From NCBI GenBank assembly GCA_965113315.1, contig OZ220364.1: a stretch of 64,000 nucleotides of DNA. One strand, written 5' to 3'. The notes beneath the pieces were generated by a model that did not search any database, had not been told where the DNA came from, and worked only from the letters and a program-made list of their open reading frames with translations. The stretch's first letter is position 1. Each line of letters begins with the position of its first letter. This document shows, one piece after another, positions 23,801-62,328 of this stretch. The translations under genes and the position numbers were made by a program. The DNA is from Podarcis vaucheri. Taxonomy: Eukaryota.

Positions 23801-23967
23801 CTTATTGCAGCATTAGCTTTTATGGGCTAGAACCCACATTGTCAGACGCATGAAGTGATTTAGAAGACCATGTGCCCGCACATATTGACACTCATTTGTG
23901 TGCGTACATTTACATATTTTAAAAACTTTTATTCCCCTGACTTTTAAATTCCAATTCTGTTGTGCAG

Positions 23968-24089
23968 CACACCTACCAAAGGCATAGAGAACAAAGCATT
24001 TGATCGTAATACAGAATCACTGTTCGAAGAACTATCTTCTGCTGGCACTGGTCTGATAGGGGATGTGGATGAAGGAGCAGACCTACTGG
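23968..24089 (+). CDS. SPAG9: SPAG9 exon ([24 protein letters not shown]...GADLL)
   Basis: gcag acceptor, G|gtaagt donor, 122 nt. Confidence 0.95.
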
Positions 24090-27000
24090 GTAAGTGGGTA
24101 TTCTCAAAAAATCCTGTTGATTTCCATCCATTTCTTCAGCTTAAGAACTGTGAAGGTAATTGTTCTGTGAGAGTTGAGGAATGAAGTTGTTGAGAAAAGT
24201 ATTCATGTTCAGTACTTCGTTTTAAGTAAGCTTCTTCTATATATAAAATGGTTACTAATTAAAAATGGTGAAGTTGAAAACATTCAGTCTCCTACATGAG
24301 GTTTTTACCAAAGGGAGTCTTTTGATTATTTATTCAGAACTCTGCTTTAGTGCAGTCCTAGGTTGCACTCAGAAGTAAGTTCCATTGAGTCCCTGATAGG
24401 TTTGGGTAAGGTTTCAGAGCAGGTGTAGCAGCTACTCACCAGGTGAGAAGGAAGTCATGTGACATGGGGAGGATATCTGAAACAGCGCCCAGAACCATCA
24501 GCCTGTACAATAATATGCAGAGGCACAAGACTACCTGAATAATGAAGTGAATCAAGCATTTGCTCTTGAGTTTTTAAGGACTGGTGAAATAACCAGTTTA
24601 ATTTGGTAAATAGCAAGCTGAAAATAGAGCCCTCATTGGCTGCTCCTGTCTCTTTTGGTCATCAGCATACAAGGGCAGGAGGGGGCCTCATTTCTGAAAT
24701 ACGGTCATCCTCCATTCTTTGATATGCAGAGGTCCCTCTCGATACCCTTTCTAACGACCCCCATCCAGATCCATTACAGCCTAGATGATTTTTCCAGATC
24801 GGAACTTCTCCACCAGCTATAGTTAAAGGAGATGAGCCCAGTTCCACAGTCAGTTCTGTTAAAGAATGTAAGACTATCCCCATTAGGAGGATTGCTAAAC
24901 CTACATAATAAATAAACCTAGCACTGCTCAAACTTTGTAGATTCCAATTTGATGCAAATCAAGGCCCAGTAGCAGTTTGGTGGGTTGGTTCTTGCAGGCT
25001 GTCAGCAGATGTCTTCTGCAGTGTCAAACATTGGCATCATATGGAATCAGTAAGCCAGATGCCTCTATAGCAGCCCTATACTCCGCTGTAAGAGGGGCAC
25101 ATTTTGTAATGTACACTATTTCCCCAAGCAGATTTTCTATTTTGGGTCACGAAGAAGACCAAAGAGGCCCATTTAAAAGGATCAGAAAAAGGCAAATGTT
25201 TGTAATTGCTAAATATTATTTTGGACTGTGAGCCTAAGATTCTAGCTAGCCATGGGCACAATAGAAGATGAAGGTTTGGTTACTGAGTGGAAAAACTCAA
25301 GCTGAATGGGATTCGCCTGCCCCTCTCTCTCCTGTGCTTCCAGAAAAGTCTCTAGAGGGTCAGTGGCCCCTTCTGAAGAGCATGCAATGAGGAGTGATGG
25401 GCTGCAGTGGGAAGAGGGAATCGCCCAAAATCAGCTGTAGGCCAAGTTTGCAAAATGTCATATTTGCAGAGCTACAAGCGAGACCTTGAATTCAGATTTA
25501 AATTCAGCAAATGGAATAGTAGTCTATAAGTACTCACAGAAGGAAACAATGTTGACAAGGGAGTGTTTCCAGCTGATCAGGAAGAAAAATAGACAGCTAC
25601 CCAGTTGTGTCGCATCTCTGGGATGGTTGCCATGACTTTGTGTGAAAATGTCAGAATTGTTCAGGTTAGCCAGAATCCTCACTTCCTTTTAGTGTACATG
25701 CCTGAACTGTGTAACCCAAGCACAAGCATTAAAGGGCCAGGTGGTTGAGCTCAACTGCCGTGCTCCCCCTGATAGAGCACATATGTGTGCCTTCTCCATA
25801 CCACACACTCCAGATTCTGTTGAGCAATTGAGGTAGGCCAATATCACTTGGCAACTGCGGCTAGTGGGATTGCTGTTTTGTCTGTTTCCCTATGGCGCAA
25901 CTTCATTTTTATGCTACAATGTCAGCACAGCATGGTATATGCCAGGCACTGCTGCAGTCATGGGAATGAAAATAAAGGTTTCAGTAGTAGTTCTGCTCTT
26001 TCTGGAGTTGAGCAGGAAACATGCCCTGGCATAGCCCAGGTGCCAGGATTTTTTTTTATTTTATTGGAAGGTAGTTACCCTAGTTACAAAACTCTGCATG
26101 TAGCCTCAGCTAGAATTATGCGTTTCAACAGATCTGCTGCAGATACTCAAGTACATTTTCTTCTCTTTGTGGTGGGCAATATAAATTTCATTCATCTATT
26201 TCAAACAGCATTTATGATTTGACTTTATTTAAAAATTAAAAAAGCATTACAAGTATTTGGCTTTCGAATAAGGGGGAGTCACATATGTAGCTTGGTGAAT
26301 AGCATCAGTCTTCTCCATTCGTTGTCCTCTGAAATTAAGTTGGCTGATTTGAATGAATATACGATGGACAGCATTAACTAGTGAAATGGAGAGTCTTGAC
26401 TCTACTGATGTCCTTTTAATGGGTTTATTAATGAGTTGCTTTTAAAGCTCTTGATGTCTGTTTTAAGAGAGGGTTGCAAAGACAACTCGCATAGCCCGGA
26501 TTAGGGATGAGGAACCTGCTACCCTCCTGATGTTGGTGGAGCACAGTTTCCATCACTCCTGACCTTTGGCCATCATGGCTGGATGGGAATAGAATCCAAC
26601 ATTTGAAGGGTAGGAGGATCCCAGACTTTAGCCTGGATCTTCTAGGATTTGAAGGGAAACGACTAAATGCGGCAGAATAATCCTAATGTGTTTATACAGA
26701 AGTCCTACTGAGTTCAGTGGGACCCAATTTGAAATAAGTGTACATTTTGTATGAAATGCCCTGTTTTGTAGCGTGATATGCAATATATCTGCTGTTTGAC
26801 TTATGGAGCATGGTTCCACAATGTTAGTTTACATGGGATTCTCCAATTTTCTTTCTCTTGGGCTGCATACCCAGGGGAATATTCTGGTGTGTATGCTTTT
26901 TATATTTTCAAAAGTGATTGTTTTGAAGTTCAATATTCTTGGCTGCTGCTATCATAATATATGTTGTTATTTTGGTTTTTATCCTGCTTGGTATCTTCCC

Positions 27001-27531
27001 CCCCCCCCCAACCATTTTGTTTGATAATCGTTTCTCTGTTAGGGACACCAGCAGTTAAAAGTGTAGTGCAAATAACTCAAGTCTATCTCTACGAACAGCA
27101 ATTTTTGAAATCCTCAAAAAACTCAAACTTCAGCCACTTTTGAAGAAAAGACCCATTATTTTCTACAGCTATAGGCAGATACTGGCCCTAGTTCTGTCTT
27201 GTGAAACCACCCAAACATGGAGAAGCAGTTGGAAATAAGAACAGGGTTTGAAGTATTTTGTATTCTCATTTTGTATCCTCCCTGGGGTCTGGGGATGAAG
27301 GGCAGTATAAACAAACCAACCAGCAAACCTTCTGAAACCATCATGACTGTTTGCTGATCACTGAGTACAGGGCCCCCTTCTTTTGTATTTAAAGCACAAG
27401 CACATGTCAAACGCATTGTAGGATGTAAATTGAAGAGCTGGCTAGTTGGAGGGCATGAAGAATGCATTGTGATGCTGCTATCCTGGCAGAATGAGGGCAG
27501 GGTTCCTTTCTCCTGTGCAGCAAGTGCAGTA

Positions 27532-27866
27532 CAGTGGTGCCTCACAAGACGAAAAGAATCCGTTCTGTGATTCTCTTCGTCTAGCGGTTTTTTTGTCTTG
27601 CGAAGCAAGCCCATTGAAGGATTAGCGGATTAGCGCTATTAGCGGCTTTTAGCGGCTTATCTGCTGATCGGATCAGCTGATAAGCGGCTTAGCCGCTTAG
27701 AAAAGGGGGGGGGAGGAAAAAAACCCAGCAGGAACTCGCAAGACATTGTCGTCTTGTGAAGCAAGCCCATAGGAAATTCGTTTTGCGAAGCACCTCCAAA
27801 ACGGAAAACTCTTTCGTCTAGCGAGTTTTCCATCTTGCGAGGCATTCGTCTTGCGGGGCACCACTG
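27532..27866. mobile_element. Tc1/mariner (Tigger/pogo-like) MITE
   Basis: TIRs CAGTGGTGCC..CAAGACGAA / TTCGTCTTG..GGCACCACTG, TA TSD. Confidence 0.85.
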
Positions 27867-27869
27867 TAC

Positions 27870-28038
27870 ATAGGAAGCTGCCTTATACTGATTCAGACCA
27901 CAGATCCACCTAGCTCGGCATTGGCAGCAGCTCCTCGGGGTTTCAGGCAGAGTTCTCTCCCATCCCTACCTGGAGATTGAACCTTCTTGAGACCTTCTGC
28001 GTGCAAAATAAGTGCTCTGCCATTGAGCTGCAGCCCCT
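27870..28038 (-). mobile_element. tRNA-derived SINE
   Basis: Reverse strand begins GGGGCTGCAGCTCAATGGCAGAGCAC (A-box) and ends AGGCAGCTTCCTAT; related copy at 33739-34178. Confidence 0.65.
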
Positions 28039-28798
28039 CTCCAACAGGGAGACTTCTTGCAGGTGGATTTTGATCTGTGCATCTGCGTCAGCACTGTGAG
28101 AGCGGCCACATAAAAGCGAGATACCTTGTTTCCTTGGCATCAGTCAGCATTCCATGTCCTTTAGAGAATATGATCCTTGTTTCTCAGAAGAGTACATTCA
28201 GTATGCTTAAGGAATCGAGGAGCAAGATATTGGCCTTGTTCCAGTGACTTCGTCCACTACTCCAGTGGGTGCACAGAGCTCCCCTCCTTGTGCAGGTACT
28301 TACCTGTTCATTTCAATAGAGTGGGCACTTTGTGGTGTAAATATATGGACTTGCCCTCCCTGCCTCCTGCCAGGTGAGCAGTGCAGCCCATTTGCTGCGG
28401 AGAAGCACTAAATTACTACGTGCTTATTCTGTTTGAGGAGTTGGTCTCATTTGCTCAGTTTTGCAAATACATGTGTAAATAGCAAATACGTTTCAACGCT
28501 ATACACATTTTAGCAGGGTCTTAATTTTCCTAGATTTGCCCAGAAACCTGTAACCTTTCATTGGCCTGTGTTCTAAGATTGATGTAAGAAGCGAAGGCCA
28601 GTTTAAACACCCAGGGTTTATTTATGGTGAGCCATCAAGAATGTAGCTATGACATTGCCACTTCCCCAAAATATTACTGGAATGTTATAACTTTATATAC
28701 CTTTCAGAGGTCTGAAATGTGTAGCTGTTGGTATATTATAAGCTGTAAAGGTCATCCCCATAATCCCCAGCTGCCAGTGTTTGTAACACCATTTATAC

Positions 28799-28934
28799 CA
28801 AGCATCCCCAAACTCAGCCCTCCAGCTGTTTTGGGACTACAATTCCCATCATCCCTGACCACTGGTCCTGTTAGCTAGGGATGATGGGAGTTGTAGTCCC
28901 AAAACAGCTGGAGGGCCGAGTTTCGGGATGCCTG
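28799..28934. mobile_element. Palindromic hAT MITE
   Basis: Near-perfect hairpin, perfect 8-bp TSD ATTTATAC. Confidence 0.88.
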
Positions 28935-29872
28935 ATTTATACCAACAAACCATGTACGGTCTCCACTGTCCCTTCCCCAAAAAGATACTGCAGTGATGGG
29001 AAAAGTGCGGAATAAGGCAACTAAAATGGTCAAGAACATTTTCTGCTTTGTGGAAACCCTTAAGCATTTGGGACTTTAGGAAAAGAAAAAGGGATGATGT
29101 GGGACAGGTAAATTATGTGTGGCTTGGAAAGACTAGATGGGTGGGTGTGTCCTTTTGGCTTTGCCTTGGGTTTATTAAGTTAAATTGGGCACTACCTTAT
29201 TTTCATATGTGTGTGTGTGAGTGTGTGTGTGTGAGTGTGTGTGTGTGTTCACACCCACCCACACCCACGCCTTCATCAAAAAGAACCAAGGAAAGTAATT
29301 CAAAGCGAACCAAAGAAAGAAGTGCGTGGCTGACATGCAACCCATAATTAACTGATTAAATTCCCTATTTTAAAATGTGGTGATGGCCATGGGCAGGGGG
29401 CTTCAAGAGGCAGTGGCAGGAGGTGGGGATTAGTCAGTCTTGAAGGGTGTACGTCTTTCTACAACCTCCCTGGCTAAATGGAAACCCTATTTTCAGCAGT
29501 GTTACCTTTCGGGATTTAGATTCCTGGGGACAAACTAAAGAAGAAAGGCTGTTGCTTTCATAGCCTCTTTACAGGTTTCTTGGAGGTTCCAATGTTAGAG
29601 ATGGGATGCCGGACTAGAGCAATGCTTGGTCCACTGAGGCTTCTCCTAGATCTTGACCATACTTTTTGACACTACTCTCTTTTAACTGTTTATGTCTTAC
29701 TATATGAGTCATTTTTAAATGAGAACATAATTTGGCTTCAGACGTTTACTGCTGGCTTTGCTTTGAAATCACTCACATCTCTAGTATTGTGCTGTACCTC
29801 ACTCATACTCCTCTCCTTACATGAAATATTTCTTCTTCTTCTTGCTCTTCATGGGATTCATGGGCTTTAAAG

Positions 29873-29887
29873 ACCTTAATTTCTTTG
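29873..29887 (+). CDS. SPAG9: Candidate 15-nt microexon (adds DLNFF)
   Basis: ttaaag|ACCTTAATTTCTTTG|gtaagg; phase 1-1, no stop; resembles the recalled JIP3 alternative insert (..DDFFG) at the same position. Confidence 0.7.
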
Positions 29888-30548
29888 GTAAGGTATCATC
29901 TCATTTGGGGAACATTTGCAAGGGCGTTGCATTGTCTTTGAGCTTTTTCATGTTCTGCATCTCTTCTCTGTGTTGTGACACGGCTTTCAGCATCAAATAT
30001 ACGTAATTTAAATTTGTAGTGTAAACTTTAATTGATTTTCAACACTTGTTTTAATACAATTTATTTTCTGCAAGAGCAGTTAAACATTGGATTCTTGGAC
30101 TGAAAATATTTTGCATTGTTCTTCTGGGCTTCAGAGAGCCTACCTGTTGAACACTTTAAAAGTCCAGCAAGATTTAGTTTTGAAAACTGTTGTTTTCAGC
30201 TATTAAGGAATCAGGTGCTTCGATAAACTCCAAGAACTATCCTACCTGCATAGGTTGTTCTTCCATTTTTATATTTTATTGACAGTTTGACAGGTGGCTT
30301 GAGAAGTAGTATGCAACACTATTAAATAAATGATTGAATACATTTCAGTGGAGGAAGCTAATCTGCGTGCAAGCAGTGCAGTTCCTTCCATTGAAATTAA
30401 TGTGGAGTCCCACTTACATAGTAGCCCCACATGAACCTCGGAGCAGCATACACTAAACTCTGTATCAGGGTGCATAAGTTTGAGAACTGGCACTTGCACT
30501 AGTAATTTCAATGTTTTTAAGCTGTTTACTCTGTTCTGTCTTTGCAAG

Positions 30549-30606
30549 GAATGGGTCGTGAAGTTGAAAACCTTATCTTAGAAAATACACAACTGCTAGA
30601 AACCAA
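30549..30606 (+). CDS. SPAG9: SPAG9 exon (MGREVENLILENTQLLET), start of LZII
   Basis: AAG acceptor, AA|gtgagt donor, 58 nt. Confidence 0.94.
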
Positions 30607-30823
30607 GTGAGTAACTTTTTCAGCTGTTGAACATAGAATTTCTTCTGCTAAACTTGTTTTAAAATTGATCATGAGACTGGTTGCTGGTTCATAAAGGATA
30701 TAATCAATTATTCCCAAGGCCCTTGTTCCATATATCCACGTGACAGATGTAGGTTAGTTGATGCTTTAGGTGTTTGCACTATTCTGATCTCTAATGGTTA
30801 ATATAATTAATATAATAGGCTGT

Positions 30824-32582: not shown

Positions 32583-32632
32583 TGTGATACTGGTAGAAAT
32601 GACCTAATTACAGCTATCTTTGTTGTCTTCAG

Positions 32633-32785
32633 AAATGCCTTGAATGTGGTGAAGAATGACTTAATAGCAAAAGTAGATGAGCTCACCTGCGAGAAGGATG
32701 TGCTGAAAGGAGAGCTGGAAGCTGTAAAACTGGCCAAACAAAAGCTTGAAGAGAAGAACAAGGAATTGGAAGAAGAACTTAGAAA
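32633..32785 (+). CDS. SPAG9: SPAG9 exon ([21 protein letters not shown]...EEELR), LZII
   Basis: ttcag acceptor, AA|gtgagt donor, 153 nt. Confidence 0.95.
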
Positions 32786-32878
32786 GTGAGTGTAATACGC
32801 ATGTTTCATGTACAGCAGAGAAGATCTTACCAGGGATTCTGCAACTAACTTCACTGATAACTCTTGCATCTTGTTTAG

Positions 32879-32930
32879 AGCCCGTGCGGAAGCAGAAGAA
32901 GCGAGGCAAAAAGCAAAGGAAGACGATGAT
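32879..32930 (+). CDS. SPAG9: SPAG9 exon (ARAEAEEARQKAKEDDD)
   Basis: tttag acceptor after a 93-nt intron, GAT|gtatgt donor, 52 nt. Confidence 0.93.
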
Positions 32931-53486: not shown

Positions 53487-53525
53487 CTGTAATCCTCCAC
53501 CAGGGACGTTTACTGGGGCTGAGGG
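53487..53525 (+). CDS. SPAG9: 39-nt cassette exon (TVILHQGRLLGLR)
   Basis: Long pyrimidine tract + tag, G|gtaagt donor, phase 1-1; matches the recalled SPAG9 alternative exon and the JIP3 equivalent. Confidence 0.9.
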
Positions 53526-62128: not shown

Positions 62129-62328
62129 NNNNNNNNNNNNNNNNNNNNNNNNNNNNNNNNNNNNNNNNNNNNNNNNNNNNNNNNNNNNNNNNNNNNNNNN
62201 NNNNNNNNNNNNNNNNNNNNNNNNNNNNNNNNNNNNNNNNNNNNNNNNNNNNNNNNNNNNNNNNNNNNNNNNNNNNNNNNNNNNNNNNNNNNNNNNNNNN
62301 NNNNNNNNNNNNNNNNNNNNNNNNNNNN
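62129..62328. other. Assembly gap (200 N)
   Basis: Run of N. Confidence 1.

Follow-up and report, generated by a model that had tools for sequence, protein, structure and literature searches.

Five codons, spliced in or left out immediately before the second leucine zipper (LZII) of SPAG9/JIP4, pose two questions in a Podarcis lizard: in which cells is so small an exon used, and what could it change in the protein? The exon lies in a 64,000-nt stretch of DNA, here called the window. The original prediction saw in it a neural microexon driven by NOVA. Several lines of evidence favour, with good confidence, another answer: this 15-nt exon in the lizard is orthologous to the SPAG9 retina microexon, likely included mainly in photoreceptors and likely under SRRM3, and it is predicted to lengthen the linker in front of the zipper.

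The gene and its 15-nt exon

Sequence matches identify the gene as lizard SPAG9/JIP4, with its 5' exons outside the window. Residues 143-1319 of a lacertid JIP4 protein (P0072) map in exon order to 2009-57990 on the + strand, and the matched regions follow one another as part of RH1/LZI, LZII, RH2 and WD40. The window is single-copy within the 1.61-Gb genome. The exon upstream of the insertion site is 100% identical to JIP4 records versus 65% to a second locus of the same genome, and this second genomic match is JIP3-like (MAPK8IP3).

The intron between the upstream exon, which ends at 24089, and the downstream exon, which starts at 30549, measures 6,459 nt and offers 176 in-frame, stop-free AG..GT candidates of 9-30 nt. 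A donor-consensus scan of the intron with a cut-off of 7/9 matches missed both true microexon donors (the second microexon is described below) and was replaced by scoring based on orthology. Against the orthologous insert DHNFF, 29873-29887 has a BLOSUM62 score of 21, the highest among the 23 candidates of 15 nt; the runner-up scores 7. Both flanking junctions are in phase 1, and inclusion of the exon adds DLNFF without a stop or a change of frame. The letters and coordinates first given for an AG/GT exon that yields GADLL-DLNFF-GMGREV ahead of LZII are confirmed, and the exon is a microexon by its length (at most 27 nt), its AG/GT sites and its preservation of the frame (Table 1).

Table 1. 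Features at the insertion site of SPAG9/JIP4 and in the equivalent JIP3 intron; positions refer to the window unless a contig is named.
Feature	Position	Strand	Basis or remark
Upstream SPAG9/JIP4 exon, 122 nt, phase-1 end after GADLL	23968..24089	+	tblastn, lacertid JIP4 100% identical; donor used in RNA reads
LFEEL, at the Spindly motif position (LYHEL in JIP3)	24020..24034	+	alignment to JIP3 chain 8pr2_B; binding by JIP4 putative
UGC at -11 of the 12-nt microexon	26864..26866	+	putative SRRM3/4-type element
12-nt microexon, adds GEYS	26875..26886	+	acceptor CAG, donor GTGTGT
Upstream YCAY cluster (29709, 29769, 29773, 29799, 29803, 29849, 29858)	29709..29861	+	predicted NOVA silencer
AG-free zone, about -90 to -2	29785..29870	+	contains pyrimidine run 29829-29843 and UGC at 29790 and 29843
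15-nt microexon, adds DLNFF	29873..29887	+	sequence; acceptor AAG at 29870-29872, donor GTAAGG; orthologue of HsaEX0061188 / MmuEX0044507 / GgaEX0010439 / DreEX0008317
Downstream exon, 58 nt, start of LZII (GMGREV...)	30549..30606	+	acceptor used in RNA reads
JIP3 12-nt exon, GEFS	G000:C36:38991503-38991514		equivalent intron, same genome
JIP3 18-nt exon, VRDDFF	G000:C36:38994190-38994207		equivalent intron, same genome

A retina microexon catalogued in four vertebrates

Human, mouse, chicken and zebrafish all have a 15-nt exon in SPAG9 that Ciampi et al. (2022; PMC9303857) count among the retina microexons. In Dataset S1 of that paper, PSI for retina, other and neural samples is 73.66, 0.97 and 5.32 in human, 54.73, 0.11 and 2.68 in mouse, 42.39, 0.71 and 11.69 in chicken, and 80.4, 0.43 and 6.1 in zebrafish. 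The corresponding values for a 12-nt zebrafish neighbour (DreEX0008316) are 27.02, 0.08 and 1.21. SPAG9 is not named in the main text of PMC9303857, and its tables give no exon letters; the match to the lizard rests on gene, length, site and protein records. Table S5 places the human exon beside M392-G393-R394-E395 of PDB 2W83, which is the start of the chain matching the lizard downstream exon and hence the same junction.

The lizard exon has the gene, intron and length of HsaEX0061188, and DLNFF shares four of five residues with DHNFF. Like the catalogued exon, it sits before M-G-R-E of LZII and has a 12-nt neighbour; it differs in carrying L rather than H at residue 2 and in that its inclusion is deduced from the orthologues. 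It corresponds to a SPAG9 microexon already on record for vertebrates and is not new. Present in the catalogue for four vertebrates, the exon itself is ordinary as a discovery.

This comparison does not support the label "neural": in the four species the orthologues are enriched in retina, where inclusion is 42-80%, and reach only 2.7-11.7% in neural samples (PMC9303857). Because neural inclusion of the orthologues is so low, an RT-PCR on brain could look nearly negative. By analogy with the orthologues, a retina-type pattern of inclusion very probably holds in the Podarcis lizard.

Experiments on the orthologues point to the regulator. In the tables of PMC9303857, the dPSI of the human exon is +17 for SRRM3, +25 to +84 in seven lines for SRRM4, and -0.7 and +7.9 for MSI1. 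Zebrafish eyes at 5 dpf have a PSI of 60.38 in the wild type versus 14.9 in the srrm3 mutant, both being 0 at 60 hpf. SRRM3, shown to promote inclusion of the orthologous exons, would be expected to do the same in lizard photoreceptors. MSI1 was rejected as a regulator because it has little effect on the human SPAG9 exon (PMC9303857).

Splicing signals around the 15-nt exon

The pyrimidine run upstream of the exon is pure over 15 nt, and UGC occurs at -30 and -83. Even the nearer of the two lies farther off than the UGC at -11 of the 12-nt exon, which counts somewhat against an SRRM3/4-type element. SRRM3 probably acts through the pyrimidine/UC run together with UGC. RBFOX was rejected as a regulator, TGCATG being absent within 500 nt downstream of the exon.

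The original prediction also described many YCAY motifs in the flanks and regarded the exon as a NOVA target. The pyrimidine run, UGC and YCAY are all present. Seven copies lie in the 200 nt upstream and three in the 200 nt downstream. Compared with 2,000 dinucleotide shuffles, the upstream excess is borderline (p = 0.063 for the six copies within 110 nt and p = 0.034 for the seven within 200 nt) in windows picked after the motifs had been seen. Of the 110-nt windows in the 64 kb, about 1% have at least six YCAY, and the count at 20 other approximate exon starts never exceeds three. Four of the upstream words double as a branch-point pattern (YTNAY). The downstream intronic YCAY cluster that marks a NOVA-activated exon was not found, as the three copies in 100 nt are at chance (shuffle mean 2.6, p = 0.51).

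These counts bear on the original proposal of a pan-neural microexon that NOVA activates in brain. The seven upstream and three downstream YCAY speak for it, and two published observations lean the same way: a neural PSI of 11.69 in chicken (PMC9303857), and the climb of the paralogous JIP3 18-nt exon in whole-zebrafish RT-PCR, where it stands at 0 after 12 h and at 0.92 after 48 h, a rise to about 0.9 over 12-72 h (PMC12626420). The proposal is nonetheless improbable, given the low neural and high retinal PSI of the orthologues, the position of the YCAY cluster on the upstream, repressive side, and the chance-level count downstream. The activators that have been tested are SRRM3 and SRRM4.

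A repressive role for NOVA fits the location of the motifs better. Retina microexons as a class have an excess of Nova motifs on their upstream side, from which bound Nova is predicted to reduce inclusion (a hypothesis framed for the class), and Nova is low in photoreceptors (PMC9303857). NOVA bound to the upstream YCAY cluster could hold the 15-nt exon out of other neurons, a role that falls just short of being favoured.

A second microexon and the JIP3 pair

The 15-nt exon is one of two microexons in the intron, the other of which, 12 nt long, was overlooked in the original prediction. It was located because a four-residue insert in protein records pointed to it. Segment 26875-26886 scores 22 against the orthologous insert, the top of 33 twelve-nt candidates, the next scoring 12, and GEYS is annotated in Lacerta agilis and in further protein records.

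One 10-nt word occurs upstream of both microexons, at 26832 (-43) and at 29850 (-23), and is otherwise absent from both strands of the window. A word loosely similar to it accompanies the JIP3 18-nt exon. The word is possibly a shared splicing element or the trace of an old duplication.

In the same genome, the 12-nt and 18-nt exons of JIP3 match the JIP4 pair in intron, order and phase. A stretch of 15 letters, made up of the last nine exon nucleotides and six donor nucleotides, is identical between the 15-nt and the 18-nt exon, and the 12-nt exons of the two genes have an identical GTGTGTAT donor. The only other 15-mer common to the JIP3 and JIP4 introns is a TTC repeat. Between two introns as long as these, chance would produce about 0.08 shared 15-mers, so the case for homology rests also on position, phase, order and the 12-nt exons. 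Given this agreement with the JIP3 exons in order and phase, the microexon pair likely predates the JIP3/JIP4 duplication. The original prediction named an alternative ..DDFFG insert of JIP3 at the same junction, and the lizard VRDDFF exon bears this out. UGC is absent within 60 nt of the JIP3 18-nt exon.

The two longer microexons differ in length, 18 versus 15 nt, and in published context, the JIP3 exon being described as a brain-development microexon whose deletion in zebrafish leads to mild differences in brain activity (PMC12626420). The text of that paper and the 12 supplement files searched do not mention spag9. A preprint (bioRxiv 10.64898/2026.09.05.749416) treats syd/SPAG9/MAPK8IP3 as a hotspot of neural microexons with convergent gains. 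It reports that knockout of an 18-nt neural microexon of Drosophila syd causes hyperactivity and fewer offspring, and it raises the same kinesin-1, dynein-dynactin and ARF6 hypothesis for that exon. The syd exon resembles the SPAG9 exon in gene family and in its protein position adjoining LZII; the preprint describes it as convergent with the vertebrate exons, and it is set beside the SPAG9 exon here by description alone. Within vertebrates, the letter-level homology of both microexons between lizard JIP3 and JIP4 argues for common descent, a homology that may already stand in the figures of the preprint (Fig. 5j).

Conservation of the insert and its probable use in the lizard

Protein records that span the junction are largely RNA-supported gene models. 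From 280 proteins examined, 39 were excluded as not spanning the junction (fragments or intron read-through). Among the 241 counted, the stretch between GADLL and GMG[RK]EV has no insert in 96, the 12-nt insert only in 17, the 15-nt insert only in 43, both in 84 and an odd insert in one; part of the set was sought for insert-bearing records, so these counts describe a range and not a prevalence. DHNFF occurs in placental mammals, birds, Anolis and Hemicordylus, DHNFL in a marsupial, DRNFF in a turtle and DLNFF in Denticeps. Other teleosts have DLSLI-type inserts, the sequence having drifted in this group. At residue 2, where the lizard has L, the other amniote records compared carry H or R; L is found in fish records as well.

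The claim of an old, conserved microexon adjoining LZII is upheld by the occurrence of the same insert in mammals, birds, a turtle, other lizards and fishes. The further claim that the exon is invisible to annotation fails, because many public protein records include it, although the five-residue insert is found in none of the 15 listed members of a lacertid cluster of 62; GEYS is found in three of these 15. A presumptive YxxL sorting or LIR-like motif across the two exons was rejected, since H or R occupies that place in records from other amniotes.

Four RNA runs from this lizard group, of unlabelled tissue and searched over 23900-30700, contain only the skip junction, with 11, 2 and 0 reads plus one contig. 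Among the matches listed, which are crowded by repeats, none of these 13 raw reads and one contig includes the 15-nt exon. Inclusion in the lizard is inferred rather than seen because the four runs gave only skipping, and this skipping leaves inclusion in retina equally compatible with the data.

Could the exon be a decaying or silent remnant in the lizard lineage? The skipping in the four runs and the insert's absence from the 15 listed lacertid records (of 62) would fit such decay, as would the change from H to L and the AAG acceptor. However, the splice sites, the frame, the pyrimidine run and the AG-free zone are all intact, L at residue 2 also occurs in fish records, and inclusion of ~1% outside retina predicts absence from non-retina RNA. 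Decay is a very improbable reading, and the preferred one remains an exon used mainly in photoreceptors.

The linker between the Spindly motif and LZII

The Spindly motif of JIP3 anchors the protein to the dynactin pointed end, and ARF6 is bound by LZII at a distance of about 7.5 nm (PMC7615804). By alignment, both JIP4 microexons fall exactly between the corresponding motif and LZII, which makes the published JIP3 pointed-end, ARF6 and motility assays applicable to a photoreceptor microexon. The linker from the Spindly motif to the zipper has 19 residues when both exons are skipped; one exon brings it to 23 or 24, and both to 28. A literature search, with most subscription papers outside its reach, found neither functional work on the JIP4 exon nor binding data for its insert; PMC12772503, PMC4633719 and PMC13719587 provide general background.

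Structures offer some guidance on what the insert might do. In the ARF6-JIP4 crystal chain and in the chains of isolated JIP3 LZII, the match begins no earlier than the M that follows the insertion site, which means that the insert was absent when these complexes formed. The JIP3 chain of PDB 8PR2 includes both inserts. An AlphaFold2 monomer of a bird isoform without the two exons (P0270) runs as a single helix from GADLL into LZII, and in that of a bird isoform with both (P0280) the helix is interrupted by a six-residue coil. In both models the pLDDT at the site is below 50 and the mean over the model is 35-38, and a break in the helix on inclusion is a hint only.

The simplest mode of action would be mechanical: as a spacer or helix break, the insert would shift the zipper that binds ARF6 and KLC relative to the dynactin anchor and thereby tune vesicle transport in photoreceptors. 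This prediction is tentative. Its main rival, somewhat unlikely but still to be reckoned with, is that the N-F-F end of the insert forms a new contact surface for a partner, for example dynactin p25/p62 or some cargo factor of photoreceptors. Retention of FF and the donor between JIP3 (D-F-F) and JIP4, and in most amniote records, is consistent with such a surface, as is the model in which the JIP3 microexon residues (with a numbering offset) open the LZII segment 406-495 at the dynactin pointed end (PMC7615804). Against it, LSLI-type residues take this place in many records from teleosts, and the needs of splicing may explain nucleotide conservation beside the donor.

The two paralogues suggest a broader and rather unlikely scheme. 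A microexon pair present before the duplication would have undergone a later regulatory split, JIP3 becoming broadly neuronal in its use and the JIP4 15-nt exon confined to photoreceptors. The four linker lengths would form a ruler with four states, placed between the Spindly motif that binds dynactin and the zipper that binds ARF6 and kinesin light chain. During outer-segment transport, this ruler would set how the adaptor changes over between the dynein and kinesin motors.

Other features of the locus

The remainder of the window holds several minor features. High-copy interspersed repeats at ~27530-27960 and 28800-28925 draw thousands of unrelated RNA reads, and a run of 200 N at 62129-62328, downstream of the last coding exon, is an assembly gap or a masked stretch. 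Inside the open reading stretch 32631-32930, lacertid isoforms skip ~93 nt at 32786-32880, which could be a short frame-preserving intron whose retention is possible. In the WD40 region, a 39-nt exon at ~53487-53525 follows a long pyrimidine tract and is found in lacertid isoforms; it is presumably an alternatively spliced exon of SPAG9.
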